From positions 1-29,953 of IMG/VR virus record IMGVR_UViG_3300025084_000138: a stretch of DNA of 29,953 nt. One strand, given 5' to 3'. Origin of the DNA: a virus (lineage: Duplodnaviria > Caudoviricetes). Below the pieces are notes generated by a model. That model was not told the DNA's origin, made no database searches, and saw only the letters and a list, made by a program, of their open reading frames with translations. Shown here piece after piece: positions 7,417 to 29,825 of this stretch (the stretch's first letter is position 1; each line of letters opens with the position of its first letter). The position numbers and the translations under genes were made by a program.

Positions 7417-8667
7417 TTAATTAGCACCTTGCCCTTGATCCTGTTGATTTTCATCGTCTGTTGTCACTGTGGTTTCTTCCTTTACATTAACTCCCAACGA
7501 ACCAACTTTATATCCACGAGCTCTTAATAAATCACTACGACTTATTACCTCGACTTTACATTTTGCACCATATTGTGTACTTGCTGCTAAAGTATTATTT
7601 AACTCTCTATGATTTAACCAAACTTGTTTGTCACGAAGATAATTTGGTACTTCTGCCCATTGGGCTTGTTGATTAAATGTCCATTCTTCCATTATTGTTG
7701 GATTATAAGTTGCACAAATAAAAAACCATTCGTTTAAATCATCAGTTGGTATTTGTGTGTGGGCATTAAATGCATTTAAACTAATGTTCTCATCACCATA
7801 TAATACTGTTCCCGTTGAAACCGTATCGTGTCGGTCAACATCCTGAGTACCGAAATGACTATCGTATAGGTTACCCATATCATTGCCAGCGGAACGATTG
7901 CCTCGAACAACCAACCTAACCATTCTTCTATATACACCATCATCTTCTCGTGTAATGGTTTCTAATCTAAATCCATATGGACTTTCAGTTGATGTGGGAT
8001 TTGCAAAATTAAACAAAGTACCTCTGCCAGTTTTTCCAACAAACCTAACCCACATGGTTATTGTAAAACCAACTGTTAGAAATGAAGGACCTGGACCTGC
8101 GGTTTTCTGAAATTCCAGTAGGTTGTTTGAGTTTCTTAATATAATGGCTTGATTTGGTTTTCTTATTTTTAAAAACCCACTTGATTTATTTTCATACTCA
8201 GGTCGTTGATCTTCTATGACTTGAACGACATTATCAACATCACCTAAATAAGTGTTGAGTTTGTTTCGCATTGACTCAAGTGTTTTACCTACATTAGCCG
8301 GTCCATTTGGGGCAGCCTCAATAGTATGCCTATTTAATCTAGTAATATAAGCATTAGGATTGACTCCCAAATCAATACGAGATGTTCTATCTGCTACATT
8401 ATTCAATATCTTCTCACCGGCACCATCCCCATCAACATCAGCGAATTGTGGTACCTGACCAATTAAATCATTAAACTCATTAAAGAAATCATTGATTTGA
8501 TCTTGTCTCGTGGTTTGAGTTGGAAGTAATTCAAATATATTGGTATCCAATATTTCACGAGCTTTTTCTGGATTTATTTTAGTGCCAACTTGGGGTTTTG
8601 TTAATTGACTTAAATTTAATACATTTATGAAATATCTTTCCTTAATCACTATGTTTTGCACTGGCAT
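7417..8667 (-). CDS. Putative structural protein with a C-terminal LamG/concanavalin A-like domain
   Basis: GFTITMWVRF...GTLFNF and EWFFICATY motifs are typical of LamG-like folds. Confidence 0.6.
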   Translation of the reverse strand: MPVQNIVIKERYFINVLNLSQLTKPQVGTKINPEKAREILDTNIFELLPTQTTRQDQINDFFNEFNDLIGQVPQFADVDGDGAGEKILNNVADRTSRIDLGVNPNAYITRLNRHTIEAAPNGPANVGKTLESMRNKLNTYLGDVDNVVQVIEDQRPEYENKSSGFLKIRKPNQAIILRNSNNLLEFQKTAGPGPSFLTVGFTITMWVRFVGKTGRGTLFNFANPTSTESPYGFRLETITREDDGVYRRMVRLVVRGNRSAGNDMGNLYDSHFGTQDVDRHDTVSTGTVLYGDENISLNAFNAHTQIPTDDLNEWFFICATYNPTIMEEWTFNQQAQWAEVPNYLRDKQVWLNHRELNNTLAASTQYGAKCKVEVISRSDLLRARGYKVGSLGVNVKEETTVTTDDENQQDQGQGAN

Positions 8668-13587: not shown

Positions 13588-14958
13588 TTACTCCTGTGTT
13601 GTTTTTTGTCTAACGTTCTGTTCTACATAATGGTATTGACTTAAAAATTTTGTTGGTCCTGGTATTGGTGTATTAGTTTCATCATCAACTTCTCTCGGTT
13701 GTAATGTATCAATCACCCTTTGTATATCAGGAAGCATTGGACTTGAATCCTGCTTAACAAGTGGAATAGGTACACCCTGTACTAATGCTCTTGAATTTTG
13801 TAATATATTCATAATATCCAATAATAATATTCTCAGCTCATCCCCCAATACCATTGGTTGAGCTTTATTCTTTGCTTCCTTTCCTATATAAATATTCTCT
13901 GATTCAATAACTGAAAACCCTTTATTCGTTATTGTTAAATTCTTACCAGCTCCAAAGTTAATATTACGAAATGCTGAAACTGTAAAATCATTATTTTGTG
14001 CATCAAATGTTATCCTATCAGAAAACATTATTATTTGATCAAAATCAGTTTGTTGTTCTGGAGTTGGCTCTACTGCTCCAAAGTTTATATTAAATACATT
14101 TTCATCACCAATACTATCATTACCAGCATTTATTGGAAAACCAATATAGCCAGTTTCTTTCACTACTTTATTTACTGATAATTGATAAGGTATTGTATTT
14201 CCTTCTTCATCTACTTCAGTTGATGGGAAATAATCAGGTATTGATCCTAATGATAACATACCTAAAACAGAACCATTATTTCCACTTGAACTATTATTTC
14301 TAAATATACTGTATGGATTTATAAATCTATAACCAAGTTGAATTGAATTACCATGTCTACCTTCAAGAGTTAAATCAGATACATTTGATTCTATTTCAGC
14401 ATCAGAACCAACATCTCCTATTCCAGTATCATATGGTCTATCTAAAATTATATTTTTTATTTTAGTAATTCTATTGATTGCTCTTTTTATAAAATTTATA
14501 TTGTATCCATCACTATTATCTTTTCTATCATCCAATACTACTCTATTTGGATTTAAATCTGATTGGTGTAATATATCAGGACTATAATTTGGATTATTTA
14601 AAGTGTTTATTGGCCCTAAGTAATAAAACTTACTACCTAAGTTCATATAGATTACCGAATCACCACGAGCTATTGAATCAGCAAAACCACGTAATAATGG
14701 TTGAGCCAAGAACATTCCTTTTAAATAATTTGATGGTAAATTAAAGTCAGAATGTCCACTATAAGTTGGTTTTAAAAGAATACATTGACTTACATCGGAT
14801 GGTGCACCACGTATGGGATAATCAAATGAATTCAAATCTTGTGATTCCAATACTACCTTTTCTACATGACCATGATGAAATGTAAATTCAGGTAAAGGTA
14901 CTGAATCTAAATTTACCTGACCAAGAACATTTGACCGTTGTGGGTGAGTGTTAGACAT
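13588..14958 (-). CDS. Probable baseplate hub/spike protein (gp5/gpV-like)
   Basis: N-terminal OB-like region (PLLRG...GDSVIY...YYLGPIN), EGRHGNSIQLG, beta-repeat C-terminus ending in IYIG...QPMVLGDEL; upstream of gp25/gp6. Confidence 0.6.
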   Translation of the reverse strand: MSNTHPQRSNVLGQVNLDSVPLPEFTFHHGHVEKVVLESQDLNSFDYPIRGAPSDVSQCILLKPTYSGHSDFNLPSNYLKGMFLAQPLLRGFADSIARGDSVIYMNLGSKFYYLGPINTLNNPNYSPDILHQSDLNPNRVVLDDRKDNSDGYNINFIKRAINRITKIKNIILDRPYDTGIGDVGSDAEIESNVSDLTLEGRHGNSIQLGYRFINPYSIFRNNSSSGNNGSVLGMLSLGSIPDYFPSTEVDEEGNTIPYQLSVNKVVKETGYIGFPINAGNDSIGDENVFNINFGAVEPTPEQQTDFDQIIMFSDRITFDAQNNDFTVSAFRNINFGAGKNLTITNKGFSVIESENIYIGKEAKNKAQPMVLGDELRILLLDIMNILQNSRALVQGVPIPLVKQDSSPMLPDIQRVIDTLQPREVDDETNTPIPGPTKFLSQYHYVEQNVRQKTTQE

Positions 14959-15353: not shown

Positions 15354-15390
15354 AACATTCAATAATAAATATAGAATGATTAGAAAGTTA

Positions 15391-16116
15391 TTACAAAGAA
15401 CCTGTGTTTATTAAGTTGTTTATATGACCTCTAATTAAAACTTCTTGTTGTATTTTTGGGTATATTCTACGAAACACATTAGATACTTGAGTTATTTTAG
15501 AAGTCTTGACATCTGTCATTTCTCTAATCATTATGTATAAAGCTTTCTTATTAAAGTTATCAATATTATCTTTATTTCTACAGAGAAACAATATAGATTC
15601 AGCTACGTCTTTATCATGTTGTTTGGGGAATAAACTTTCTAAATTATTTTCAAAATAAGTTAGTGTCTTTTTAAATACATCAATGGATGGTGATTTTTCT
15701 ATAACTTCATCATCTACTCCTACGTCATAGAGTCTATCAATATCATCATGAATTTTTAACTTCTTATAGTTAGCATTATTATTTAATATAAGATAATTCT
15801 TTGCTACTACGGAGAAATAACTAAATGCTTTACTTCCTTTAGTCTCATCAAACTTATGCATATTGATAACTAAATTAGAAACTACTTCTTCCTGTAGGTC
15901 TCTAAATCCATAACTGAAATAACTAAACTTAAAGGTGTTAATTATATTTTCTGCTAACTTTAAAAAAGCAGCATGAATTTTTTCGGTGTATATTCTATCT
16001 CTGACTATTGGGTTATCAGAATGATTATATCTTATAATGGCATCATGTACTGGTGTGCCAAAATATATTTTACTTTTTTTCTTTCTTTTCTTTTTTACTA
16101 CTTTCTTTGTTGCCAT
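15391..16116 (-). CDS. gp55: Phage sigma factor for late transcription (T4 gp55-like)
   Basis: FLKLAENI...F..Y...DLQEE......MHKFDETKGSKAFSYFSVVAKN resembles the gp55 core. GAGG SD precedes ATG 16116. Confidence 0.7.
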   Translation of the reverse strand: MATKKVVKKKRKKKSKIYFGTPVHDAIIRYNHSDNPIVRDRIYTEKIHAAFLKLAENIINTFKFSYFSYGFRDLQEEVVSNLVINMHKFDETKGSKAFSYFSVVAKNYLILNNNANYKKLKIHDDIDRLYDVGVDDEVIEKSPSIDVFKKTLTYFENNLESLFPKQHDKDVAESILFLCRNKDNIDNFNKKALYIMIREMTDVKTSKITQVSNVFRRIYPKIQQEVLIRGHINNLINTGSL

Positions 16117-16378
16117 CATCAACCTCGGTTTCAAATAAATTATTTAATTCGTTCCCAAGTTGTTTTATCTCATCGAAGAAAAAACCAACTTCATCATCGG
16201 ATTCGAATGTACCTTTATTATCTATTATTTTAAGTTGATGTTTTATATTTTCTATAGTATTGTTTATATTTAGTATTATTTCTTCATAGTTATTAATTCG
16301 TTTCAATGCATAAAAAGTTACTAAACTCATACAGAGTGCAATAATTCCTAATAAAACGGTTATTATGTAATGTAACAA
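16070..16378 (-). CDS. Hypothetical membrane-anchored coiled-coil protein
   Basis: N-terminal hydrophobic helix, then heptad-like sequence and FESDDEVGFFF. Confidence 0.7.
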   Translation of the reverse strand: MLHYIITVLLGIIALCMSLVTFYALKRINNYEEIILNINNTIENIKHQLKIIDNKGTFESDDEVGFFFDEIKQLGNELNNLFETEVDDGNKESSKKEKKEKK

Positions 16379-16889: not shown

Positions 16890-17090
16890 TTATTCATCAT
16901 CCGTATAATCGTCCATTTCGATAGTGTCTAATTCATCTTCATCGTAATATTCAAGATTGATTCGTTTATTCCTTTTATAATTAGGATCAGTTTTCATTGT
17001 TTTATTATCAAGTGATCTCATTTGTTTTTTATCATTATTAGTTAGCATACAATCCTTCATAAATTGTGCCATATCTATTTTTTTATTCAT
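16890..17090 (-). CDS. Hypothetical protein with an acidic tail
   Basis: 66 aa; GAGG SD. Confidence 0.65.
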   Translation of the reverse strand: MNKKIDMAQFMKDCMLTNNDKKQMRSLDNKTMKTDPNYKRNKRINLEYYDEDELDTIEMDDYTDDE

Positions 17091-17120
17091 TATTAACCTC
17101 TTATGTTTAAATAAATTTTA

Positions 17121-17218
17121 GGGGCATAGAAGAAAGGAAGAAAGAACTATGCCCCATATAGAACCTCTTAAAATGAGATTCAATTCTTTGGAGAACGATA
17201 ACCTATTTGTTTATCCGA
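17121..17218 (-). ncRNA. Candidate small RNA or structured leader with an anti-SD loop
   Basis: Directly downstream of a sigma70 promoter. Hairpins GAUAA/UUAUC, GAAUCUC/GAGGUUC and GGGGCAUAG/CUAUGCCCC, the last with a 17-nt all-pyrimidine loop. Confidence 0.5.
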
Positions 17219-17221
17219 TAT

Positions 17222-17260
17222 AATATACACATAAATTACATTAAAGTCAAGCATTATTTT
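17222..17260 (-). promoter_or_regulatory. Sigma70-type early promoter (copy 1)
   Basis: AAAATAATGC-TTGACT-17 nt-TATATT. Confidence 0.85.
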
Positions 17261-17712
17261 TTATTATTCATCATATCTTGTTTAGTTTTATTCTTATGGC
17301 AGGGACGGCATAAGGTTTGCATATTATTTAATCCATAGTATGACCAATCTAACTTATTGGCTTTAATTCCCTTTTGTTCCATCAATGGTTTAACGTGGTC
17401 CAAGTCCCAAGTACGTCTTGTACATTGTTTTCCGCAATCATTACACTTTCCTTTGTCTCGTTTCCATATATGTTTTCTTGCTTCTGTAGGGTGGTGTATT
17501 ATCATATAATCCGTGGCACAATCTTGATGCCAAGACTTACGAGTATTGTGTATTTTATTCTCTATAATCTTTTTACCACACCAACGGCATATTCCTTTCT
17601 CTTGTACATAATATGAATCAGGCTTTGGTGGTTTACGAAAGTCTCCATTCCATTTTTCCTTTTTCTTACCAAAGGTATGTTTTTTTCTTTTACCGAATCT
17701 ACTTAAAGGCAT
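17254..17712 (-). CDS. HNH endonuclease
   Basis: RDKGKCNDCG...DLDHVKPL...NMQTLCRPCHKNKT. Confidence 0.88.
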   Translation of the reverse strand: MPLSRFGKRKKHTFGKKKEKWNGDFRKPPKPDSYYVQEKGICRWCGKKIIENKIHNTRKSWHQDCATDYMIIHHPTEARKHIWKRDKGKCNDCGKQCTRRTWDLDHVKPLMEQKGIKANKLDWSYYGLNNMQTLCRPCHKNKTKQDMMNNKK

Positions 17713-18036
17713 TTATTTTATTTGTAAATCTTGTATCCACTTGGGAACATTGTTTTCCATATAATGTTGTATTACAAACGCTTCACATATATGAGAGAAG
17801 AACCAAGTAAAAGAAAGTATTGGAACATAAATCTGATAATCCAATCCCACCTTACTTATACCTAACCAAGTTAAGAATAACATTCCTATTGTTTTAGTTA
17901 AGAAACTTATACCAGTAAAACCCAGTGACATAGTATTACCACGTTGCATAACAACATAAGTTCCAATAATCAAATGTAGTAAGTTTAATACGATAGGTGC
18001 TAATACACCCAAGGTAACCATTAGTAAATAATTCAT
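17713..18036 (-). CDS. Hypothetical membrane protein (about 3 TM)
   Basis: Three hydrophobic stretches; coupled to the transglycosylase gene, so a holin-like role is possible but unproven. Confidence 0.65.
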   Translation of the reverse strand: MNYLLMVTLGVLAPIVLNLLHLIIGTYVVMQRGNTMSLGFTGISFLTKTIGMLFLTWLGISKVGLDYQIYVPILSFTWFFSHICEAFVIQHYMENNVPKWIQDLQIK

Positions 18037-18611
18037 TATAAATTCTTATATATTCTCTTTACATAAAAGTTGTTCTTAATATAATTTGAACTATACTTTT
18101 TCGTAATGGTAGGACCATGACTATAGGCCGTAAGTGTAGCATCCATGTCATCAAAATGATTATTTAAATGTGATAAGTATTTAATACCTACGGTAACGTT
18201 AATATAAGGATCAAATAAATCGTTTTTTGGTGTTTTGAATTCAGACATAGCAGTTTCGGGTAATATTTGCATTAATCCAATAGCACCACTCGTTGATATT
18301 GCTTTATGATCCCAACTTGATTCGGTTTGTATTACGGCTTTAACCATATCATAATCTACACCATATTCATCACATAATGCATTAGTATAAATTAATAAGT
18401 GTTTAAGTTTAGATTTATTCAAAGTTGAATTAATTTCATTAGCTTCCAATTCAAAGTCGCCTCTAATTAAAGGAGCATTTACCATACGAACAATGGTTTC
18501 TGTTTTGGTTTGAATTGTAGGTGGATTATGTGTGATTTCTTTATACAATACTACTGATAAAGAAGTAAATAATACACCTAATAAAAAGTGTAGTCGATTA
18601 TTATTTAACAT
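18036..18611 (-). CDS. Lytic transglycosylase (SLT domain) with N-terminal TM/signal
   Basis: AVIQTESSW...AIS..GAIGLMQILPETA...N...G.KYL...AYSHG. Confidence 0.92.
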   Translation of the reverse strand: MLNNNRLHFLLGVLFTSLSVVLYKEITHNPPTIQTKTETIVRMVNAPLIRGDFELEANEINSTLNKSKLKHLLIYTNALCDEYGVDYDMVKAVIQTESSWDHKAISTSGAIGLMQILPETAMSEFKTPKNDLFDPYINVTVGIKYLSHLNNHFDDMDATLTAYSHGPTITKKYSSNYIKNNFYVKRIYKNL

Positions 18612-18643
18612 ATGATTTCCCTTTCGTTTGTTAATGTTATTAA

Positions 18644-18708
18644 TAAATAGTGACTCGTCATCTTTAAGCCATTTATCTGTGAGGACTAAGAATTCAAGCC
18701 ACTATTTA
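18644..18708. repeat. Inverted repeat / stem-loop in the transglycosylase leader
   Basis: TAAATAGTGACTCG (18644-18657) and CAAGCCACTATTTA (18695-18708); pairs fully with G-U on the minus strand. Confidence 0.6.
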
Positions 18709-18711
18709 AAT

Positions 18712-19141
18712 ATTTGGAATTTAGGTAGGATGTGAGACTAACGATTACTCACAAATGCCAAAAGGTCTGATAAAGTTTACTACTCATACTAACATCCTTT
18801 CAGTTACGAAAGTTACTCCGAAAGATGGTTAATCCCGTTGAAGTGAACACAACTTCTGATGTTATGCCTTACCCCTTTATCATGGGTTATTAGGCAACAA
18901 TGGTAAGAATCTCGGTTATTAAACCACTCTCTTACAATGAGTTAGAAAAATCGTTGTTTTTCTTAGTATTATGACATTTCTTTCAGTTCACAGATGTCTC
19001 CGTTTTAACTACCCACATTCGAGCTATTAAAATCTCACCACAAGAAGAACTTACTGAACAATAACCCCTTTCTCTAAAAAAGAGTTTATTCTGTCAATCC
19101 CACACAAAGATAGCAAGTCTTTGTGCTTCCTATTTCCAAAT
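18712..19141 (-). ncRNA. Large (~430 nt) highly structured non-coding RNA candidate
   Basis: No ORF of 60 aa or more; dedicated promoter; ends pair (AUUUGGAA/UUCCAAAU); 12-bp long-range helix UGUGGGAUUGAC/GUUAGUCUCACA; at least 7 internal hairpins. Confidence 0.75.
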
Positions 19142-19235
19142 TGTCAAAAAACTATGAGTTGATGCCAGAAGTATCAGCAGTACCGATACTAGCAGTGATA
19201 ACTAAATATCCTAATCAACCCAAATCTTGTACCAT

Positions 19236-19264
19236 AATATACACATAATATTAATATATGTCAA
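19236..19264 (-). promoter_or_regulatory. Sigma70-type promoter (copy 2) driving the large ncRNA
   Basis: TTGACA-17 nt-TATATT. Confidence 0.85.
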
Positions 19265-19467
19265 GTCTTTTTTTTAAGTTTTTTAAAAAACTTTAATTCC
19301 TTTGATGTCATCATTTGTAACTTAGATAAGTTATCCATTATCTTACCTTTCTGCACCAAAGATATTTTATCTTCATCATATAACTTATTGAGTTTTTCTT
19401 GAGCCCGATAGTATCCGAACTCCATGAATTCTTCTACGATGATGTGGTAAATTGATTTGTTTTCCAT
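19261..19467 (-). CDS. Hypothetical protein
   Basis: 68-aa ORF. Confidence 0.6.
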   Translation of the reverse strand: MENKSIYHIIVEEFMEFGYYRAQEKLNKLYDEDKISLVQKGKIMDNLSKLQMMTSKELKFFKKLKKKT

Positions 19468-19534
19468 ATGAGAGAATTTTTTAAAATTTTTTGAGAGTCT
19501 TTTCGTTGGCTATTTCTTATATATATTGGCTTTA

Positions 19535-19825
19535 TTATTTCGCACTTATAGTATCATTCAATACTACAACATCAAATTCATATCTCTTCCACATTTCATT
19601 CAATTGTTTTAAAGTTGATTTAGTATAAACAACCGTATCGTCATTAAGAATCGTATCATGTAGGGCATCTACGTGTTCCCAATCACTACGTTTCCAGACG
19701 ATTTTACCATCCGAATTTTTCCTTTCAACATAATTACCCATATTTTCATAACCATTTTTCTCACACCAATCTTCAATGCGAGTTCTCAAGGATTTTAATT
19801 TATTTAATAATGTTTGTCTTTTCAA
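19535..19825 (-). CDS. Hypothetical protein
   Basis: 96-aa ORF with TTG start abutting the upstream stop. Confidence 0.65.
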   Translation of the reverse strand: MKRQTLLNKLKSLRTRIEDWCEKNGYENMGNYVERKNSDGKIVWKRSDWEHVDALHDTILNDDTVVYTKSTLKQLNEMWKRYEFDVVVLNDTISAK

Positions 19826-20065
19826 TTATAATGGATTTACTACAGGTGTATTCATAACTTCTTCTAGTTCTTTTCCAGATATAACTTTATCTTCATCCAA
19901 TAGAGTTCTTTCGATTTCATCTTTAAGATTATACACGTCATTTCGTGCACCATCTATATAAGACTTGCCTTCTGAAACACCTTCCCATTCTGGCAAAGAA
20001 TAGTAAGCGTCATCTAAATGACCTTCTATTTCTACTAACGTGTTTAATATTTCTTTTAATGTCAT
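19826..20065 (-). CDS. Hypothetical acidic early protein
   Basis: AAGGA SD directly after an early promoter. Confidence 0.75.
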   Translation of the reverse strand: MTLKEILNTLVEIEGHLDDAYYSLPEWEGVSEGKSYIDGARNDVYNLKDEIERTLLDEDKVISGKELEEVMNTPVVNPL

Positions 20066-20091
20066 TGTTTTTTTCCTTTTCTTAACACCTA

Positions 20092-20130
20092 ATAATACGA
20101 CAAAATAATGATAAAGTCAAGCATTATTTT
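20092..20130 (-). promoter_or_regulatory. Sigma70-type early promoter (copy 3)
   Basis: AAAATAATGC-TTGACT-17 nt-TATTAT, then leader TAGGTGTTAAGAAAAGGAAAAAAACAATG. Confidence 0.85.
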
Positions 20131-20380
20131 TAAGTTTTTTAAAATAATTTAAAACTTTATTTCGAGTGTATTTAATACTATGACTTAAAGGAATACGTCG
20201 GGTTCCCCTTTTCCACCAATGTAATCTACCATCACCACCATCAAATGCTTCCCACCTACATTTAGACCAGATACATTTCCATTGATATCTATCAGTATAT
20301 CTTTCAAATGGTTTCATAGTCCAACCACAATGACATTCTGGACTATGTTTATAATATTTTTTTAATAACAACTTAAACAT
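20117..20380 (-). CDS. Small Zn-ribbon-like protein
   Basis: PECHCG...M...WKCIWSKC. Confidence 0.6.
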   Translation of the reverse strand: MFKLLLKKYYKHSPECHCGWTMKPFERYTDRYQWKCIWSKCRWEAFDGGDGRLHWWKRGTRRIPLSHSIKYTRNKVLNYFKKLKNNA

Positions 20381-20799
20381 TATTTTTTAAGTCTTTTCTT
20401 AAATCTCTTATGCATTTTATTTAATGCCTGTTTTTGTTTGATACTTAAAGTACCACGATTTTTAACTTGTTTCTCTACACTATTTAAGAAATCTTCAGCA
20501 CCATATTCATAACTTCTTTCGTAATTACATTCATACAATAGTTTTTGAACCATCCTTACTTTCTGAACCGCTGTTTCTTTTTTTGTTTTATAATTAGGAT
20601 CATTTTTTTTAAAGAAATATTTAGCATAATTACTAATGGCATTGTTTATGGCAGTTTCTTGTTTCTCTGATAAACTATATCCCCCTGAAAGCTTATTATG
20701 CATATCAGCTACAAAACTCTTATAGCCATTATCATTAACCCAATAGGATTCATCTTTTAAGATGTGGTCTAATTGTTGTTTTCTTTTAACGTAATTCAT
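20380..20799 (-). CDS. Hypothetical protein with an internal duplication
   Basis: SFVADMHNKLSGGYSLSEKQ and DFLNSVEKQVKNRGTLSIKQ repeats. Confidence 0.75.
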   Translation of the reverse strand: MNYVKRKQQLDHILKDESYWVNDNGYKSFVADMHNKLSGGYSLSEKQETAINNAISNYAKYFFKKNDPNYKTKKETAVQKVRMVQKLLYECNYERSYEYGAEDFLNSVEKQVKNRGTLSIKQKQALNKMHKRFKKRLKK

Positions 20800-21161
20800 T
20801 ATAAGTAATTAGGACCTGTCCATGAATACCAATCAGAACCATCATAAAATATAGAACCTCTGACGTGTTTAGCTGGTGCTCTCCAAGTAGCAGCCTTGAA
20901 TACATCACCGGTAAAGTAAGGTATTCCTTTATGTACACCAGCTTTTTTAGCAACAAAACCCCAAACTGATGAGCCGTGTATTATCTTATCAAATTTCCTA
21001 CCAGTAGTAATTCTTAACTCATTCTTAAACCTATGAGAACTTTCTGTTTTAATCTTTAAAGTCAATTCATCCATATCACGAGGTGGTTCTATACCACTCC
21101 AAGAATCATAGTCATTACCAATCTCAATAAGTAGATTGTCTAATGCTTCTTTATATTCCAT
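20799..21161 (-). CDS. Conserved phage early hypothetical protein
   Basis: GRKFDKI...SVWGFV...GDVFKAATWRAPAKHVRGSI motif, recalled from T4-like marine phages; AAGGA SD. Confidence 0.75.
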   Translation of the reverse strand: MEYKEALDNLLIEIGNDYDSWSGIEPPRDMDELTLKIKTESSHRFKNELRITTGRKFDKIIHGSSVWGFVAKKAGVHKGIPYFTGDVFKAATWRAPAKHVRGSIFYDGSDWYSWTGPNYL

Positions 21162-21192
21162 TTGTTTATTTATTTCCTTTTCTTAACACCCA

Positions 21193-21231
21193 AAGATACA
21201 AAGAATAAATGATAAAGTCAAGCATTATTTT
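21193..21231 (-). promoter_or_regulatory. Sigma70-type early promoter (copy 4)
   Basis: AAAATAATGC-TTGACT-17 nt-TATCTT. Confidence 0.85.
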
Positions 21232-21331
21232 CATTTATTTTTCATTTCCAAAGAGTTCCTGTATAAAAGTTAACATTATTTTACCATTTCTTTAGTTAGT
21301 TTTTTCATTATATCTCCGAGTGTGAGTTAAT

Positions 21332-21772
21332 TTACAATAATCCCTGTTGTTTCATTTTATCTCTTATTTTATCTACATAATGTTTAGAATTTTTTAATGT
21401 TGTTGTAGTGCCTGTTTCCTTCTCGTATTCTACTCTGTAATGTTTGATAGCACCAATAATTTGATTTTGTTTTATCATACTCTCTAACTCTTGATCCAAT
21501 TTACTTCGCCAGTTCCAGTCAACATCACCGTTCCGTACCTTTATTCTAAACTTCCATATCTTATTAGCATCAACCATTATTTCTTTTATTTCATGTGGCA
21601 TCATCTCATCATATCTTTGCTCGACATCCACAAGTAGATTATGAGCCTCTATATTACTTGGTTGAAATAAATGGTTATCATCAGGTTGGTCTGGTTCTGT
21701 AGCTTTACATAACTTAACTAACCTATTTAATTTTTCGTACATCCATTCTTTTTTATTACTTGACGTTTTCAT
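21332..21772 (-). CDS. Hypothetical protein with a C-terminal ribosomal L7/L12-CTD-like motif
   Basis: IGAIKHYR...TG....LKNSKHYVD. Confidence 0.6.
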   Translation of the reverse strand: MKTSSNKKEWMYEKLNRLVKLCKATEPDQPDDNHLFQPSNIEAHNLLVDVEQRYDEMMPHEIKEIMVDANKIWKFRIKVRNGDVDWNWRSKLDQELESMIKQNQIIGAIKHYRVEYEKETGTTTTLKNSKHYVDKIRDKMKQQGLL

Positions 21773-21774
21773 AA

Positions 21775-21996
21775 TTAGCCACCTGACTCATCGTGTTTTT
21801 CAATCCAAATGTTTCCGTGACCATCAGACCCCCATTTTTTATGTAATTTTTTCTGTCCGTCGCTATCACTAAGATTAAATTGCTCTATCCAAAGAGACAA
21901 TGCACTTGGTGTTAATTTTTGAAATAATTCACCTCGATTTCTCCAAGTTAAATTTTGTATTTCACCATAGATGTATTTAGCTAATTTCTCACTCAT
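21775..21996 (-). CDS. Hypothetical protein (paralog of the upstream gene)
   Basis: KLAKYI...WIEQF.L...NIW motifs shared with 21998..22213. Confidence 0.7.
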   Translation of the reverse strand: MSEKLAKYIYGEIQNLTWRNRGELFQKLTPSALSLWIEQFNLSDSDGQKKLHKKWGSDGHGNIWIEKHDESGG

Positions 21997-21997
21997 C

Positions 21998-22213
21998 TTA
22001 TTCCTTATAATCTGAAACCCATATATTACATTGATATCTGTCTGACCACTCGGAGTGGCCTACACACTTTCTTAACTTAAATTGTTCTATCCAAAACTCT
22101 AATGTAGATTCTAGTGGCTTCTCTACAAATAACATATCCTTACCCAATCCTTTAACAGTACATCCACCCATCTCTTTGACTATATACTTTGCTAACTTTT
22201 TATTATCTATCAT
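21998..22213 (-). CDS. Hypothetical protein, 71 aa (start corrected)
   Basis: The ORF-track N-terminus overlaps a tRNA; MIDNKKLAKYI aligns with the paralog's start. Confidence 0.7.
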   Translation of the reverse strand: MIDNKKLAKYIVKEMGGCTVKGLGKDMLFVEKPLESTLEFWIEQFKLRKCVGHSEWSDRYQCNIWVSDYKE

Positions 22214-22222
22214 AATACCGAG

Positions 22223-22298
22223 TGGAGCTCCGGGGATTCGAACCCCGCTGATATCCTCCGTGCAAAGGAGGTGAACACCCCAAGCATTCCCGAGCCCC
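22223..22298 (-). tRNA. tRNA-Ala (TGC)
   Basis: Acceptor GGGGCTC/GAGCTCC with G3:U70, anticodon arm CCTCC-TTTGCAC-GGAGG, T arm CGGGG-TTCGAAT-CCCCG, A73; CCA not encoded. Confidence 0.88.
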
Positions 22299-22303
22299 AT
22301 ATT

Positions 22304-22768
22304 TTATAAATATATTCTATTTCCAGTATTTACCATTTGTTCATACCACAATCCTTCTCTGTCGTGCCACACATAGGGTGATTCTGGATTTTCTGTCCAT
22401 CCGAATTGCCCATACCACTCTAAATCTTTACGAAGTAGATTAGCACGATGTGATGAATGAAAATCTTCTCTACCTAACCAATGAGGAATGTCAATCATAT
22501 CCATATTGGGCTTGACATCATAAAACTTCATATTGTTATTATACCCACGACTAATCCATTCAGTAATTATTGTATTAGTATAGAGTTTAAGACATTCCAC
22601 ATAAGGTGTCCACATAATAGTAATAGGATGATTTCTCCAACCCTTAGCATCTGGATTTTGTATAGCATTTATTATCTGCATACCCTCGACTCGTTGTTTA
22701 CCAAGTCTACGCCAATCCAATACTTTAGCGGATTGACTAAATGATTCGTATGGTAGAAATGTCTGCAT
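22304..22768 (-). CDS. Pyrimidine-dimer DNA glycosylase/endonuclease V-like protein (MSMEG_6728 family)
   Basis: MQTFLPY..F..SA..LD..RLGKQRVE...GWRNHP...MW...P.WLG...HSSHRANLLRKD. Confidence 0.8.
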   Translation of the reverse strand: MQTFLPYESFSQSAKVLDWRRLGKQRVEGMQIINAIQNPDAKGWRNHPITIMWTPYVECLKLYTNTIITEWISRGYNNNMKFYDVKPNMDMIDIPHWLGREDFHSSHRANLLRKDLEWYGQFGWTENPESPYVWHDREGLWYEQMVNTGNRIYL

Positions 22769-22774
22769 AATGTT

Positions 22775-22858
22775 TTAAAGTTGTATCCATAAAATTAAGA
22801 GTAGTAAGAATATTACAAACCCCATAACCTTACAAGCAATTGATTCAAACTCATTCAT
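22775..22858 (-). CDS. 27-aa single-TM peptide (not in the ORF track)
   Basis: MNEFESIACKVMGFVIFLLLLILWIQL*; TAATG-coupled; fills the gap. Confidence 0.5.
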   Translation of the reverse strand: MNEFESIACKVMGFVIFLLLLILWIQL

Positions 22859-23382
22859 TAAAAATCTCCTGGTGCTACTTGGAAAGTATTTAAACCTAAG
22901 TCTCTCCACATCTTCACAACCTTGTCTCTATCATCAACTACAAGAAAGACATCATCAATATTTACGAAAGTATCTAACATCTCTTTTTTAAGAATTTCAT
23001 CAGGCATAAACCTCATTTCTTTAGTAGCTGGATTACCATCGGCGATGGGCCAGGAATCATCCTTGAACTTATCAGGTCTCATAACTAACAGATGAAATGG
23101 AACTCTATTGCGAGATAACCAAGACTTAGTAGTGAAGAACGACCTATCATTCCTACCTGAAAAGATAACGATTTTAAATCCATCTTCGGCAAGTAATTGA
23201 GCCATTTTAATTACTGGTTTATTAGGTGTATCTAAACTAATATTATCGGGGTCGAAGAATACATCCCAATCCATTTTATCATTGGTTAAGGATTTTGCTC
23301 TCCGAGCATCTATATTAGCTAGAGTACCATCAAGGTCAAATATAACTGTGTTCTTTTTCATAGCGTGTCCTGATTGTTTCAT
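22858..23382 (-). CDS. HAD-family phosphatase (T4 PseT/polynucleotide kinase 3'-phosphatase domain-like)
   Basis: FDLDGT, FSGR, LVMRP, D...K and VDDR..V..MWR..GL..FQVA.GDF; no kinase domain. Confidence 0.88.
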   Translation of the reverse strand: MKQSGHAMKKNTVIFDLDGTLANIDARRAKSLTNDKMDWDVFFDPDNISLDTPNKPVIKMAQLLAEDGFKIVIFSGRNDRSFFTTKSWLSRNRVPFHLLVMRPDKFKDDSWPIADGNPATKEMRFMPDEILKKEMLDTFVNIDDVFLVVDDRDKVVKMWRDLGLNTFQVAPGDF

Positions 23383-23573
23383 TTTAATTTCTTCCCAAAT
23401 TGATTACCATTTGCTTCACGAACTTTAGCCAATGAAACAAAGACTAAATAATTCCATTCGGCTTGAGTGAGTTTAGGTGGAACAAGTTCTCTACGAGGAC
23501 CCATGCGAACTTCAGGTAATGATAACTTACGGTTTAGTTCTTTTATTTGTTTAGTGTTTAATGTTTTTTTCAT
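23379..23573 (-). CDS. Hypothetical basic protein, probably leaderless
   Basis: ATG lies 5 nt after the -10 box; ATGA overlap with the next gene. Confidence 0.65.
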   Translation of the reverse strand: MKKTLNTKQIKELNRKLSLPEVRMGPRRELVPPKLTQAEWNYLVFVSLAKVREANGNQFGKKLK

Positions 23574-23578
23574 ATGTG

Positions 23579-23618
23579 AATATACAACACTTTACCTATA
23601 TGTGTCAAGTATTATTTT
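23579..23618 (-). promoter_or_regulatory. Sigma70-type early promoter (copy 5)
   Basis: AAAATAATAC-TTGACA-18 nt-TATATT. Confidence 0.8.
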
Positions 23619-23681
23619 TACTTTTATTATTATTTATTATAGACAGGCATGTTGTCTGTTGTAACTTAACGGAGAATAACC

Positions 23682-23906
23682 ATGAAGGAAGTAATAACAA
23701 TGATAAAAGGCTGGGTTGATGATGTAAGTCATTTAATGCTGTCTTTTGTAGCCATTGGTGCTGTATCTGAAGTTATCTTTGGAGCTGGTATCTTCGGCGT
23801 TAATGTTATTGGTAACCTGACATCAATCATAAACACATTCGGTGAGTCCGGATTTGCTGGGCTTGTCGCTCTGTTGGTGTTGGTGGGTTTATTTAAAGGT
23901 AAGTAG
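23682..23906 (+). CDS. Small Gly-rich membrane protein; the only convincing plus-strand gene
   Basis: GGAG SD, two hydrophobic helices, upstream TATTTAT, downstream hairpin. Confidence 0.85.
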   Translation: MKEVITMIKGWVDDVSHLMLSFVAIGAVSEVIFGAGIFGVNVIGNLTSIINTFGESGFAGLVALLVLVGLFKGK

Positions 23907-23916
23907 GTAGTAAAAA

Positions 23917-23950
23917 CGGGGATGGTGATATCCTACTTTCCACCATCCCC
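23917..23950. terminator. GC-rich hairpin between convergent genes
   Basis: GGGGATGGTG-13 nt-CACCATCCCC. Confidence 0.6.
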
Positions 23951-24141
23951 ACGGTTATTATGATGTATAATGATTGTATTCCCCAAAAAACATAATATTT
24001 AGGGAATACATTATATTAAGTATTTTTGTAGAAGGCGTAAAGTAAAAGTATAACAAATGCAAATATTCACCAGTCACTCATTTATTAATACTGAAGAATA
24101 ACGTGAGTATTAGATTTCGTACAACAGTGCTAAGTGCTAAT

Positions 24142-24489
24142 TTATTCATCATGTTGTTCATTTTGATATTTAGATAAATCTAATGTCGGTAATGGTTTTT
24201 CTATCTTTAAGTCCTTTAACTTACTATTGGCCACGACTAACTTAGAGCCTCCGACTATCTTACCATTCACTATATGATATATAAAGAATACTGTTTTCCA
24301 TATACCAACACGAATTATACGACCTGGTGAACCATCAATTTCAACGACATCATCTTCGTTATAATCATTGCCGAGAAATAACATTATACCATCTACTGAT
24401 TCTCGTATGGTATTATTAAACAATAGTAAAGCCACACCTGTAATGAGTAGCCAAGAGTATTCATTTATAAGGGATTTAAGTTCTTCCAT
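24142..24489 (-). CDS. MscS-like (mechanosensitive channel TM + beta-domain) mini-protein
   Basis: TM segment then DGIMLFLGNDYNEDDVVEIDGSPGRIIRVGIWKT, matching the MscS middle-domain pattern. Confidence 0.65.
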   Translation of the reverse strand: MEELKSLINEYSWLLITGVALLLFNNTIRESVDGIMLFLGNDYNEDDVVEIDGSPGRIIRVGIWKTVFFIYHIVNGKIVGGSKLVVANSKLKDLKIEKPLPTLDLSKYQNEQHDE

Positions 24490-24561
24490 AATGTTCTTTC
24501 CATTAATAAATATTAAAATGAGTTAATATAGATGAGAGAATAGGATGAATCAGAAGAAAAA

Positions 24562-24756
24562 TTATAAATATTTTTTTATCACATCAATGTATAGTTGTGT
24601 ACATTTACCAGGTATATCATGTATGATGGCTATATAGATAATCAATAGAAAGACCAATGGTTTAATAAAAGGATTAGGTTGAATGGATACTTCCAGTCCA
24701 ATAAGTGCACTTATTATTAGTTGTAAAGAAAGCTTTATTCTATCATATAGTTTCAT
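24562..24756 (-). CDS. Small hydrophobic hypothetical protein
   Basis: 64 aa with two hydrophobic stretches. Confidence 0.5.
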   Translation of the reverse strand: MKLYDRIKLSLQLIISALIGLEVSIQPNPFIKPLVFLLIIYIAIIHDIPGKCTQLYIDVIKKYL

Positions 24757-24775
24757 ATGAATAAGATTTAATTAT

Positions 24776-25222
24776 TTAAGGATTATTTAAATACTCGGTA
24801 TCATAGTATTGATTGGGTTCATTACCATTATCCCAACTACCGCTGATTGGAATATGAATTTGAATTATTTTATTATGTTTAGTACAGTATACGTTTAATG
24901 ATATACATTCTTTCGTATATAAGAATTCATGAGTAATGTATCCCCTGTCCATATTTAACGTATGGGTATTTAGGTTTCCATTTGAATTTAATAATTCAGC
25001 AAACCAATGATTTTTTTTCACTATTGAGTATTGTTCCATTGGAATCGAATAGCTATTCGAATCCGTATCGGTGGTTTGAGAGAGTAATGGATTGTGCATA
25101 AATGAAAATAATGCAATGATTAAATAAATTGACATAGGAGTGATGAGATTAACTGGATTGACTACGTGAATCAAATGGCGAATCCAGTGAATCAAATGAG
25201 ATATATTTAATGAATCATACAT
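24776..25222 (-). CDS. Hypothetical protein, possibly secreted; true start may be the internal MSIYLII
   Basis: The first ~20 codons are made of GATTCAC DNA repeats; a signal-like segment follows. Confidence 0.55.
   Translation of the reverse strand: MYDSLNISHLIHWIRHLIHVVNPVNLITPMSIYLIIALFSFMHNPLLSQTTDTDSNSYSIPMEQYSIVKKNHWFAELLNSNGNLNTHTLNMDRGYITHEFLYTKECISLNVYCTKHNKIIQIHIPISGSWDNGNEPNQYYDTEYLNNP
25166..25198 (-). repeat. GATTCAC repeat cluster A
   Basis: Minus strand reads CATTTGATTCAC-TGGATTCGC-CATTTGATTCAC. Confidence 0.75.
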
Positions 25223-25254
25223 ATAAATAAGTAGATAGAAATCATAAAACGGCT

Positions 25255-25695
25255 TTAGACTATTAAGTCTAACATCTCCAGTGCTTCCTCCCTGGTTAGT
25301 CCCGGATGACGTTTCATTGATGCGGAAACTATTCGTTCCTCTACCTGACTGCGTTGCTGACTGCGTTGCTTATGATATTCTTTCTGATACTCGTATAACC
25401 TTTCTTTACCACCATTTTCATAATAGTATCTTTTCTGAGAAGCTAATATCTTATCTCTGTTCTTAGACCAATACTTTTTATTTGTCTTTCTTATCCTTTC
25501 CTTATTTTTTTTCTTATATTCTAATCTAGAATTGCGGTATTGTTCATCATTAGTCCATAGTTCTTTTCTAACTGTACTTAAACAGGACTTACAATCCTTA
25601 TTTTTAGATTTATAAAATAACGATACATTAGTCTCGCCACAATGTCTACATAGTTTTTTAGTTTTAATCATTTGGTTTTCCAAGTTTATAGGCAT
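25255..25695 (-). CDS. Basic Zn-finger/helical-repeat protein like the N-terminus of HNH/EndoVII homing nucleases, with no catalytic domain
   Basis: CRHC...FYK...CKSC followed by Y...N.E/K repeats. Confidence 0.65.
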   Translation of the reverse strand: MPINLENQMIKTKKLCRHCGETNVSLFYKSKNKDCKSCLSTVRKELWTNDEQYRNSRLEYKKKNKERIRKTNKKYWSKNRDKILASQKRYYYENGGKERLYEYQKEYHKQRSQQRSQVEERIVSASMKRHPGLTREEALEMLDLIV

Positions 25696-25872
25696 TAATA
25701 AATAGTATTATTTTTTTTTTAACCAGAGAAATATTATTCTGTCAAATATGTCGTCAGACATAGCAATAAAAAAGCCATGGGTGAAAAATTGGTCGGGAAA
25801 TGCGCGCCAGTCTAGCGACCTTCAAGTAATACTTTAAGTCTTGGACTACCAAATGAAGATCGGTGTTGCACG

Positions 25873-25912
25873 AAAATAGGAGCCAGAAAAGGAAGAAACC
25901 AGCCCCTATTTT
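25873..25912 (-). other. Hairpin with a pyrimidine (anti-SD-like) loop
   Basis: AAAAUAGGGGCUGG-UUUCUUCCUUUU-CUGGCUCCUAUUUU. Confidence 0.6.
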
Positions 25913-25914
25913 AA

Positions 25915-25959
25915 ATCGATTCACCATTTGATTCACCTTATGTGAATCCAGTGAATCCA
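25915..25959. repeat. 45-bp direct repeat, copy 1 (four GATTCAC heptamers)
   Basis: ATCGATTCACCATTTGATTCACCTTATGTGAATCCAGTGAATCCA, identical to 29781-29825. Confidence 0.95.
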
Positions 25960-25964
25960 GGTGA

Positions 25965-26027
25965 GTCGCCCATCTCGGAGGCCTTTTAACCCATGTCAGA
26001 CATGAGAACCTCGGAGATGGGGCGATG
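25965..26027 (-). terminator. Long GC-rich stem-loop directly after the AAA+ gene stop
   Basis: UCGCCCCAUCUC-CGAGG...CCUC-CGAGAUGGGCGA with an inner CUCAUGUC-U-GACAUGGG palindrome; no U-tract. Confidence 0.5.
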
Positions 26028-26030
26028 TTT

Positions 26031-27218
26031 TTAGCTTTCAGAATCCATGTCGTGTTCTGTAAACAGCTCATCACTGGACTCATCTGAGACGAACTTCTGA
26101 ACGATTTGTTTAACGAAGGTACGTTCACTATCGACTCCGCCAGTATTGTCGTACTGAGGGTAGATTGTGATGTCTGCTGACTCCAGTAGTGAGAAGCCAT
26201 CAAACAGTAGTCCAGCAATCTCTACTGATGTTCTCGTGGAGACACCAGATGAAATTCTAGCATTCTCAGCCACGGCTTCAACACGAGTTAAATTAGTTAT
26301 ATTACTTATATTGTTTAACTCAGTTTCATCAACAGTAGGGAACATATATTTGAGTAATCCAAGCTCTTCTTCTTGATTCAATAAGTCCATTTCAATGATG
26401 GTGAATCTATCCATTAAGGCTTTATCAAGTTGACGAGTTGCCGTGTATTCATTACCTATATTAGCCGTAGCCACGAATGTAACACCATTAGCCACGTTGA
26501 TGGTAGTTTGTCCATCAGCTTCATCCAATCTCAAATATCTCTGACCTTGGTCGAGAACAGGCATTAAGATGTTCCATGCGTCTGGATGAGCTCTTGTTAA
26601 TTCATCAAGAAGAATGACAGCATTTGGTGTTTGAATGGCTTTAACGAATAATGATTCACTAAAGTAAGTACCGTCTTTTTTATTATAATGTACATTTCCT
26701 ATTAAGGTCGACCGTGGATCCTGGGTGGCTCCAAGGTTAAAGTAGTACTCTGGTCTATCCAAGGCTTTAACCAATGCTTTGGCAGCCATTGTTTTACCAC
26801 AACCGGCTTGACCAGTCATCATAATGTTCTTACCCCTTACGGCAGACCTTATCAAGTACTTCCACTTCAATTCTTTCATAATCAACCCTTTAGGTTTCAA
26901 ACCATAAGAGTTATTAATGAACTCCACTACTTCAGCATGTCCATCAGGTACTTCGACTTCAGCTGGTGGAGTAGGTATATTCTTTGAATGATACTCTTTT
27001 GACTCAAACTCAGCCATTGGCACTTTCCACCAATAAGTCCTTCCATTCTTCTCACGCATTTCCAAAGCCTTATTGGCTTTATATGTTGACTTTCGAGTAG
27101 AAGTAATAATGGCGTGAGTCCATTTATTACCATCGACATCGAAAGCGTTAAATCTATTCCCAGACATCTCTATCTTAACGATAGTTCCGACAGGGGGTTT
27201 AGTGGGTTTTGACTTCAT
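26031..27218 (-). CDS. AAA+ ATPase, MoxR/CbbQ-NirQ/CobS-like
   Basis: Walker A GQAGCGKT, Walker B ILLDELTRA, ATAN.G.EY, LDKALMDRF, STR sensor. Confidence 0.9.
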   Translation of the reverse strand: MKSKPTKPPVGTIVKIEMSGNRFNAFDVDGNKWTHAIITSTRKSTYKANKALEMREKNGRTYWWKVPMAEFESKEYHSKNIPTPPAEVEVPDGHAEVVEFINNSYGLKPKGLIMKELKWKYLIRSAVRGKNIMMTGQAGCGKTMAAKALVKALDRPEYYFNLGATQDPRSTLIGNVHYNKKDGTYFSESLFVKAIQTPNAVILLDELTRAHPDAWNILMPVLDQGQRYLRLDEADGQTTINVANGVTFVATANIGNEYTATRQLDKALMDRFTIIEMDLLNQEEELGLLKYMFPTVDETELNNISNITNLTRVEAVAENARISSGVSTRTSVEIAGLLFDGFSLLESADITIYPQYDNTGGVDSERTFVKQIVQKFVSDESSDELFTEHDMDSES

Positions 27219-27244
27219 TGTTTATTTCCTTTTTTTGACACCTA

Positions 27245-27602: not shown

Positions 27603-27619
27603 TATTTATATTCAATTTG

Positions 27620-27693
27620 AGAGCCGGGTGAGATTCGAACTCACGAAAAGCGGGTTTGCAATCCGCCCCATTAGACCACTCTGGCACCGACTC
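27620..27693 (-). tRNA. tRNA-Cys (GCA)
   Basis: Acceptor GAGTCGG/CCGGCTC, U73, anticodon loop TT-GCA-AA, T arm GTGAG-TTCGAAT-CTCAC; CCA not encoded. Confidence 0.9.
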
Positions 27694-28231: not shown

Positions 28232-28494
28232 GTGGACTCCCGTTTAGTTTTATTAATTTTCTGCTTAAATTTCTTCGATTCACTCGATTCACTATGTGAA
28301 TCCATACCGCTTATATTGCTTATAATGACTATCGAGTCGCTTTTATAGATCGATGCCGAAGGACTTGCGAATCGAAGCTGTTTCTTTGGATTCTTCGTTG
28401 ACTTGCTGGATTTCACCATTGAGCGTACTGATAAACTTCCGGATAGAACTCGATCTCCCACTTTGGCTAATCCTTTTTTGATAATTTTCGCCAT
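28228..28494 (-). CDS. Hypothetical basic Ser/Lys-rich protein
   Basis: 88 aa; contains one MDSHSES repeat. Confidence 0.55.
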   Translation of the reverse strand: MAKIIKKGLAKVGDRVLSGSLSVRSMVKSSKSTKNPKKQLRFASPSASIYKSDSIVIISNISGMDSHSESSESKKFKQKINKTKREST

Positions 28495-28706
28495 GTTTAT
28501 TTATACAATCCATTCATAGCGTCATTGAAATCTGGATGTTCATCACAATACTTATCTAAAAAATCATCTTCATCATCATAACCATAAGAATCATAAGGAG
28601 GTCCTGGAATATCAGGTTCATCAGGGTCAATCGTATCGATCGATTCACTATGTGAATCCATTGAATGGTCATATGGTTCTTCTTTCGATTCACTATGTGA
28701 ATCCAT
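28284..28706. repeat. Three identical 22-bp palindromic sites
   Basis: TCGATTCACTATGTGAATCCAT at 28284-28305, 28640-28661 and 28685-28706. Confidence 0.92.
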
Positions 28707-28760: not shown

Positions 28761-28785
28761 TGTTTTTTCCTTTTCTTAACACCTA

Positions 28786-29485: not shown

Positions 29486-29782
29486 TCATAAAGGGAAATC
29501 TCTCCAAGGCTTAATTATATAATGCCCTATAAAGGTTTTAATCTCAGGCTTACCTACCTTTCTCCTATATGTGTTTTCTAATCTGGTCCACGGACAATTT
29601 AATGTTTTGCTAAATGTTAAATGCATTATCCAAGCACATATTGGGAATGATACATAAAAGGGCTCATGAATTAAAACCAACGGCACAGATATACCAGTTA
29701 TGATTAAAAATACCCAATGTAATAATTGAATTATAAATAATAATATTCGATTCATCATTTGATTCATGCTTAGTCTATCCAT
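29486..29782 (-). CDS. Small membrane protein, DUF2784-like
   Basis: LHW.F...H......CPWTRLEN..R....P....FI.HY; start uncertain among several Met codons. Confidence 0.65.
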   Translation of the reverse strand: MDRLSMNQMMNRILLFIIQLLHWVFLIITGISVPLVLIHEPFYVSFPICAWIMHLTFSKTLNCPWTRLENTYRRKVGKPEIKTFIGHYIIKPWRDFPL

Positions 29783-29825
29783 CGATTCACCATTTGATTC
29801 ACCTTATGTGAATCCAGTGAATCCA
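29781..29825. repeat. 45-bp direct repeat, copy 2
   Basis: Identical to 25915-25959; a degenerate half copy lies at 29747-29767. Confidence 0.95.

Follow-up and report, generated by a model that had tools for sequence, protein, structure and literature searches.

Pyrimidine-loop hairpins complementary to ribosome-binding sites in an uncultured marine T4-like phage

Introduction

The 29,953-nt virus record analysed here in full (IMG/VR IMGVR_UViG_3300025084_000138, positions 1 to 29,953; hereafter the window) is a window of a large T4-like phage in which the minus strand holds nearly all genes. Baseplate and other structural genes form a block at 1–16 kb that also includes a late sigma-like gene, and an early region with approximately ten copies of a sigma-70-like promoter repeat occupies 17–29 kb. 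Two minus-strand hairpins, HP1 (17121–17155) and HP2 (25873–25912), carry pyrimidine-rich loops complementary to Shine-Dalgarno (SD) cores of the phage's own ribosome-binding sites (RBSs), which raises the question of which messages these loops read, and with what outcome. A first-pass annotation, whose coordinates, loops and folds for both hairpins proved right, had proposed that they are small anti-SD RNAs that shut off early (or host) SD-led translation and spare largely SD-less late genes, forming an early-to-late switch. The present analysis indicates that the hairpins represent a real and uncatalogued phage RNA element and that it is conserved in a large group of uncultured marine phages. 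The reading we prefer, which has roughly an even chance of being correct, is that they act as anti-SD 3' elements resembling that of the staphylococcal icaR mRNA, damping the lead gene of their own transcription unit with spill-over onto sibling leaders. This reading is based on how the hairpins fold, on their conservation, strand and position, and on a statistical fit between loops and own RBSs.

Results

A hairpin family downstream of the AAA+ gene

HP2 lies 118 nt past the stop codon of an AAA+ ATPase gene, on the coding strand. The features of this unit are as follows.

25873–25912, minus strand: HP2, a 14-bp stem with a 12-nt pyrimidine loop (25887–25898), identified by folding and by its family behind AAA+ genes
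25770–26030, minus strand: structured 3' region of the AAA+ unit, including HP2 (fold z −4.4; kept in the close clade)
26031–27218, minus strand: AAA+ ATPase gene (AAA_5, PF07728; CobS-like PHROG family, phrog_249), driven by an early promoter
27226–27233, minus strand: AAA+ RBS, an 8-nt complement of the open HP2 loop
27245–27273, minus strand: early-type promoter of the AAA+ gene

Of 80 related loci, 52 had pyrimidine-loop hairpins less than 900 nt from the AAA+ stop codon. The stems were unrelated, and across these 80 loci such hairpins lay on the AAA+ strand in 71 instances versus eight on the opposite strand (the loci analysed are part of those listed, and several hundred further AAA+ loci exist). 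Loops of 10–22 nt retain a CCU core while the stems are wholly replaced. Six partial genomes carried one to four such hairpins each, 14 of the 16 being intergenic. A third conserved hairpin site lies between the gp32 and RecA genes in 78 of 79 closely related loci, a count that leaves out the truncated locus L394, and in more remote gp32 loci the structures are larger or absent. Neither HP1 nor HP2 had an Rfam match at E ≤ 1.

HP2 folds at −16.3 on the minus strand versus −8.9 on the plus strand, owing to G-U pairs. CsrA/Rsm proteins bind GGA loops, and such loops expressed from the plus strand only had been named as the observation that would speak for a different element. This candidate was rejected, as the G-U pairs favour the pyrimidine strand and the genes run on that strand.

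Intrinsic terminators typically combine a short loop with a U-tract after the stem. A reading of the hairpins as plain terminators or 3' exonuclease barriers, with loops that are pyrimidine-rich by descent, would suit their position 10–50 nt after stop codons in many loci, their GC-rich stems and the U-tracts present in some loci (L098–L101, L115). However, the window hairpins have loops of 17 nt (HP1) and 12 nt (HP2), neither has a U-tract or was called by a terminator scan, and both the retention of the CCU core on replaced stems and the fit to the own RBS, which replicates in a hold-out set (below), speak against it; we consider this explanation highly improbable. Between the HP2 motif and the AAA+ SD no U-tract terminator was called, and no early-family promoter lies near HP2, while HP1 has a promoter but no terminator of its own. 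The hairpins thus lack the make-up of genes for trans-acting anti-SD small RNAs, and a processed small RNA from either region is possible.

Three further observations concern the surroundings of HP2. A conserved non-coding near-palindromic motif at 25770–25860 (minus strand), downstream of HP2, is shared with L039, L041–L050, L054, L055 and L117 and is kept even where HP2 differs; a role as a DNA element, for example an origin or a packaging signal, is conceivable. A large conserved hairpin at 25966–26024 (minus strand), follows right after the AAA+ stop codon; within the close clade its stem stays constant and its inner hairpin varies. Finally, a GATTCAC/GTGAATC repeat family occurs at 25145–25175, 25915–25959, 28275–28305, 28631–28706 and 29781–29825, with a 45-nt copy identical at two places and one copy abutting HP2; the repeat reads MDSHSES in two short open reading frames (ORFs) and possibly comprises protein-binding sites.

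Apparent tracking of the own AAA+ RBS by loop sequences

Identical loop/RBS pairs were collapsed and L116, which has no leader, was left out, giving a discovery set of 46 pairs in which own loops paired with own AAA+ RBSs at −9.35 kcal/mol compared with −8.16 kcal/mol for permuted pairs (sd 0.23; 0 of 50000 permutations), the longest perfect match being 8.04 versus 7.22 nt (1 of 50000). An identical pipeline applied to a hold-out of 47 new pairs, mostly from metagenome contigs, gave −8.61 versus −7.68 kcal/mol and 7.55 versus 6.86 nt (0 of 50000 for both). The longest perfect matches reached 15 nt (L102), 14 nt (L544), 13 nt (L077 and L568), 12 nt (L098 and L059) and 11 nt (L052), and in the relative G005 the own AAA+ RBS ranked top of 218 partners (13 nt versus 9 nt for the next).

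Two chance hairpins without the core (L041, L112) were left out of the locus-ranking, sister-pair, per-position and C-loop analyses, and five unanchored rows were additionally left out of the per-position and C-loop counts. Ranked against all RBSs of its locus, the AAA+ RBS was the best partner in 14 of 44 loci, where 2.9 were expected by chance. Locus-specific excess pairing was −1.27 kcal/mol for the AAA+ RBS versus +0.13 kcal/mol for other AAGG-type RBSs (n = 42, p = 0.0017), the latter showing no tracking (p = 0.35 against zero). Variation is greatest at the two bases that follow AGG, which form Watson-Crick pairs in 79 of 86 rows (67.5 expected) and 67 of 86 rows (54.5 expected, plus 10 G-U pairs), respectively. 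All 16 loops bearing a C at these positions were paired with a G-bearing RBS, and none of the 56 AA-type RBSs had such a loop. The C-bearing loops occur at six separate places in the tree; were these places random among rows, the rough chance of this would be (28/86)^6 or ~0.001, a figure that ignores branch lengths. Twelve rows combining a G-bearing RBS with a U loop look like wobble intermediates. Taken together, these data are suggestive, but not proof, of covariation between loop and AAA+ RBS. In the clade of L525, L527 and L529, AGG in the AAA+ RBS and CCU in the 3' loop have been lost together.

Alternatively, the loops could mimic the 16S rRNA 3' tail in a generic way and titrate a protein that binds the tail or pyrimidines (bS21, bS1), or any strong SD, with no chosen target. 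Consistent with this, the HP1 and gp32-site loops contain UCCUUUCU or CCUCCUUU of a 16S-tail oligo taken from PMC7797042, and bS21 is encoded by one of five relatives searched. The AAA+-site loops, in contrast, change with the AAA+ RBS, also away from the tail (L062, the L084 clade, L102, L544); 68 of 86 rows have UU in the loop where the tail has UC or similar, a departure towards the RBS, and own loops paired with AAA+ RBSs at −9.1 compared with −6.9 for the tail (91 rows). We consider tail mimicry an unlikely account of the family. The bS21 gene in L327 (G001:C1:128370–128519) has as its neighbour an acidic scaffold-like gene, and both share one strand.

Two other pairing schemes were explored. 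An H-type pseudoknot with a downstream RBS looked good by eye in L056 (13 nt) and gave p-values of 0.008 and 0.054 in the first set. The signal was gone in the hold-out (41164 and 48206 of 50000), and no such tract follows either window hairpin. Tracking of a pool of promoter-proximal leaders by the loops was weak (p = 0.059). In one clade (6 of 140 loci) similar loops precede the AAA+ start by 130–409 nt and show 7–9-nt matches to its RBS, a position that makes action in trans plausible. Non-coding RNAs composed of several motifs lie upstream of AAA+ in L054, L109, L112, L115, L117, L498 and L502, each with one or two anti-SD loops and with extra CUCCUC tracts; some end in U-tracts, and they are nearer to free-standing small RNAs than the window hairpins are.

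Complementarity in the window and the early-to-late switch

An 11-mer shared by the two loops has three copies in the window versus 0.03 expected (0 of 100 shuffles), the third lying at 7473–7483 on the plus strand. HP2 additionally has a perfect 10-nt complement which, besides the reverse strand of HP2 itself, occurs in the window only in three early leaders.

20073–20082, minus strand: leader of 20065, sibling early leader, 10-nt complement of HP2
21174–21183, minus strand: leader of 21161, sibling early leader, 10-nt complement of HP2
28767–28776, minus strand: leader of 28760, sibling early leader, 10-nt complement of HP2

The annotated match to these leaders was confirmed, with the amendment that only eight of the ten pairing bases are in the open loop, the other two being in closing pairs of the stem, and those eight also fit the RBS of the AAA+ gene. 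Ranked with accessibility among RBSs of the window, the leaders of 28760 and 20065 were the best two partners of HP2, the late structural gene 8667 was third and 21161 fourth. The annotated list lacked the AAA+ RBS, the site that the loop appears to track across relatives.

Whether such loops could discriminate early from late messages depends on how the two classes use SD sites, late genes being recognised here by a candidate promoter motif.

18638–18650, 15365–15373 and upstream of 16821, minus strand: candidate late-promoter motif, ATATTTAT type

In six relatives plus the window, with crude gene calls, this motif was 14-fold enriched upstream of genes, while the window taken alone showed no enrichment. 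In the same material an SD core was present in 30 of 39 late-motif genes, 18 of 27 early-promoter genes and 384 of 628 unclassified genes, so late genes are not largely SD-less. AAGGAA was more frequent in early RBSs (5 of 27) than in late-motif (2 of 39) or other RBSs (21 of 628), and GGAG was commoner in late-motif RBSs (22 of 39) than in early ones (6 of 27). In the structural block, eight of 12 genes paired with the 16S-tail oligo at −6.1 to −8.4 kcal/mol, compared with −6.2 to −6.5 kcal/mol for five AAGGAA-type early leaders.

Free anti-SD small RNAs that accumulate and shut off SD-led translation of early (or host) messages in general, sparing late genes, would gain from the ranking of the three leaders for HP2, from the bias of AAGGAA towards early RBSs, from an AAAGGA core shared by early leaders of 26 loci, which pair with own loops at −7.05 compared with −5.33 for shuffled leaders, and from the clade with loops upstream of AAA+, some with U-tracts, where only pairing in trans is plausible. 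A general late-sparing switch is nevertheless unlikely since SD sites are broadly used, a UUCC loop can read GGAG by wobble, and both hairpins, lying behind early-type promoters, would be made early. In addition, no RBS other than that of AAA+ shows excess pairing, a late structural gene ranks third for HP2, and neither hairpin has its own promoter-terminator pair. We consider the free small RNAs rather unlikely, and the early-to-late switch weakly supported.

HP1 and its promoter-proximal leader

HP1 lies right behind a promoter, as annotated. It ends a conserved leader that heads an operon reaching the late sigma factor gene.

17121–17155, minus strand: HP1, a 9-bp GC-rich stem with a 17-nt pyrimidine loop (17130–17146); fold z −5.5, covariation
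17121–17216, minus strand: conserved promoter-proximal leader RNA of ~95 nt with HP1 at its end; 5' end placed from the promoter
17161–17181, minus strand: middle 7-bp hairpin of the leader, all cells paired with two compensatory pairs; absent in the relative G001
17222–17250, minus strand: sigma-70-like early-type promoter ahead of the leader, from the repeat family of ~10 copies
15391–16134, minus strand: late sigma factor-like gene downstream of HP1 (phrog_234, E 3.4e-6; start codon uncertain)
18036–18611, minus strand: SLT lytic transglycosylase gene (PF01464), likely first gene of the unit ending near HP1
18618–18625, minus strand: SLT RBS, ranked first of 41 starts as an accessible partner of the HP1 loop (−9.0 kcal/mol)

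HP1 folds at −14.4 kcal/mol on the minus strand (z −5.5), a value reached by none of 200 shuffles. An alignment of 33 leader sequences had 98.9% of cells paired, with compensatory change in six of nine HP1 pairs and eight of 16 pairs of the whole leader, and none of 500 shuffles was as good; because the sequences are related, this counts as support and not as a probability. Conservation of the loops on covarying stems of the coding strand, which the annotation had proposed as a check, was thereby borne out for HP1; in the HP2 family the loop core kept on unrelated stems and the strand bias point the same way. A scan of viral contigs with a loop-free pattern yielded 106 stretches, of which those preceded by a promoter had the HP1 loop; the loop was present in 42 of 44 distinct promoter+GGTTAT segments. 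The leader is kept even where the next ORF is missing (L023, L131). HP1 has no U-tract and continues into an RBS and ORF 17090, so that by anatomy it is an mRNA leader and not a self-contained small RNA gene. Metatranscriptome contigs from four sets cover parts of the region, including one of a relative spanning 17000–17359; such contigs give neither strand nor ends.

The HP1 loop fits the RBSs of the late-sigma operon poorly (mean 3.3–4.8 nt) and matches the upstream SLT RBS by 7.8 nt (26 distinct cases). Probably HP1 and HP2 are elements of one kind, and sequence complementarity makes the strong RBS of the SLT gene its likeliest candidate partner. SLT is a probable late gene, with a candidate late-promoter motif ~35 nt upstream. 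Another candidate partner, inside ORF 13588–14958, paired strongly (−19.2) and was rejected because the site decays in relatives. Inside structural-block ORFs, two coding-strand sites complement the shared loop: 7473–7483 exactly over 11 nt, while 13872–13882 does so over 11 nt with one mismatch and decays in relatives.

Relatives, host and other RNAs

The closest cultured relatives by late sigma are distant, namely Flavobacterium phage immuto (42%) and Mel-JY01, whose gp32-RecA gaps are only 2 and 8 nt, such that a hairpin would not fit. Late sigma had no relative among the genome contigs searched for host assignment. A search through the AAA+ gene matched seven short contigs in metagenome-assembled genomes of mixed phyla, which were read as misbinned and rejected as host evidence. 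A Bacteroidota host that ignores SDs is disfavoured by the widespread use of GGAG.

Tandem manA-like RNAs (Rfam RF01745) lie on the minus strand at 18727–18928 and 18934–19125, downstream of a promoter at 19236–19264 and upstream of the SLT gene; one scored 52.9 bits (E 5e-11), slightly below the 55.2 cut-off, and the second 20.9 bits. A tRNA-Cys was called at 27619–27693 and a doubtful tRNA-Ala, inside an ORF and with just a weak match to the tmRNA model, at 22222–22298 (both minus strand).

Discussion

The loop of the HP2 family matches the RBS of its own message in many relatives, suggesting that the AAA+ message folds tail-to-head to limit its own translation. Several observations weigh against this interpretation. 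Among 36 independent sister pairs the own combination was better in 14, worse in 15 and tied in seven by energy (Wilcoxon p = 0.43), and better in 14, worse in eight and tied in 14 by match length (p = 0.29), and because these fall short of significance the permutation p-values must be regarded as inflated by kinship; per-position pair tests have few events (2 and 6 pairs) and are underpowered. One A-C mismatch occurs in 10 of the 16 C-loop rows, the hairpin is lacking in 19 of 79 loci, the G006 loop best fits a downstream gene, and the match between the gp32-site loop and its own RBS spans only ~5 nt, with the loop resembling the 16S tail. In the window the AAA+ RBS ranks fourth of 19 for HP2, or ninth of 41 with accessibility, and is surpassed in fit by the sibling early leaders. 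SLT is the top-ranked partner of HP1 in 19 of 23 loci and equally that of the plain 16S-tail oligo (19 of 23), and HP1 is kept both in L019, with no SLT seen within the upstream 3.5 kb, and in G001, where the SLT RBS does not fit. A specific HP1-SLT pairing was therefore dropped as inseparable from SLT merely having the strongest nearby SD, an equivalence that counts in favour of tail mimicry.

Under the preferred icaR-like mechanism, a stem would hold the anti-SD loop unpaired, ready to capture the lead RBS once the tail has been transcribed, the likely target of HP2 being the AAA+ RBS. An early transcript would be translated during its synthesis and damped afterwards, or in trans by accumulating 3' fragments, probably with less initiation and faster decay as the outcome. 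Pairing in vivo, repression, action in cis or trans, and timing are all inferred. Spill-over onto the sibling leaders of 20065, 21161 and 28760 would be expected because early leaders share the AAAGGAA core, and would help early translation to fade once early promoters close; damping of early units would thus be a natural by-product.

Tail-to-head pairing might instead protect or activate, with the 5' end shielded from nucleases or re-initiation aided, as in the Bacillus subtilis hbs mRNA (PMC5737220). Covariation is silent on the sign of the effect, and the genes ahead of the elements (gp32, AAA+) are ones for which abundance is expected. However, pairing would occupy the very SD core that ribosomes require, and the icaR precedent is repressive (PMC3868564); we regard a protective role as very unlikely.

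The closest known system is the Staphylococcus aureus icaR mRNA, in which a 3' anti-SD motif, UCCCCUG, located 260 nt after the stop codon of a single chromosomal gene, pairs with its own SD, blocks initiation and promotes RNase III decay, with cis versus trans action left open (PMC3868564). HP2 is similarly placed downstream of a stop codon on the coding strand, but in the phages the putative motif forms the loop of a GC stem that can be exchanged, and it recurs at several loci. The icaR feature of own-SD complementarity with compensatory change is permutation-significant here in two sets and concordant at six tree positions, is not significant in independent pairs, and spans 8 nt in the window. 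The Cuckoo/alpha-r14 small RNAs of Alphaproteobacteria also combine variable stems with a constant anti-SD loop, but are free-standing and consist of two to four adjacent hairpins with CCUCCUCCC (PMC4615179), whereas the phage elements have one loop each with a UUCCUUU core and are embedded in mRNA ends. Phage T4 likewise controls early or premature translation at the SD, through RegB and the RBS-sequestering leader hairpins of gene e (PMC3014915); RegB is a protein that cuts GGAG and the gene e hairpins pair locally, while the putative partner of the hairpins described here is 1.1–1.9 kb distant. The hbs mRNA shares long-range pairing between two ends of one message, but there the pairing modulates RNase Y cleavage in the leader, and the abstract describes no anti-SD loop (PMC5737220). 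Few tested examples of tail-to-head SD pairing were found in the literature examined (icaR, hbs), and search listings showed no phage case; subscription papers were mostly outside this coverage, so absence from print is not established.

A broader and doubtful possibility is that large marine phages time expression by RBS-reading tails, with AAA+, gp32 and lysis units each ending in a loop tuned to the lead RBS, messages switching themselves off, and released tails silencing sibling leaders and holding SLT off until late. If true, such tails would be an RNA-only stand-in for T4 RegB. The ~90 natural loop/RBS pairs, with apparent compensatory steps via G-U intermediates, provide a test set for the generality of tail-to-head pairing as a means of limiting translation per transcript and, if the pairing is repressive, these elements would give phages a protein-free way to end early translation.

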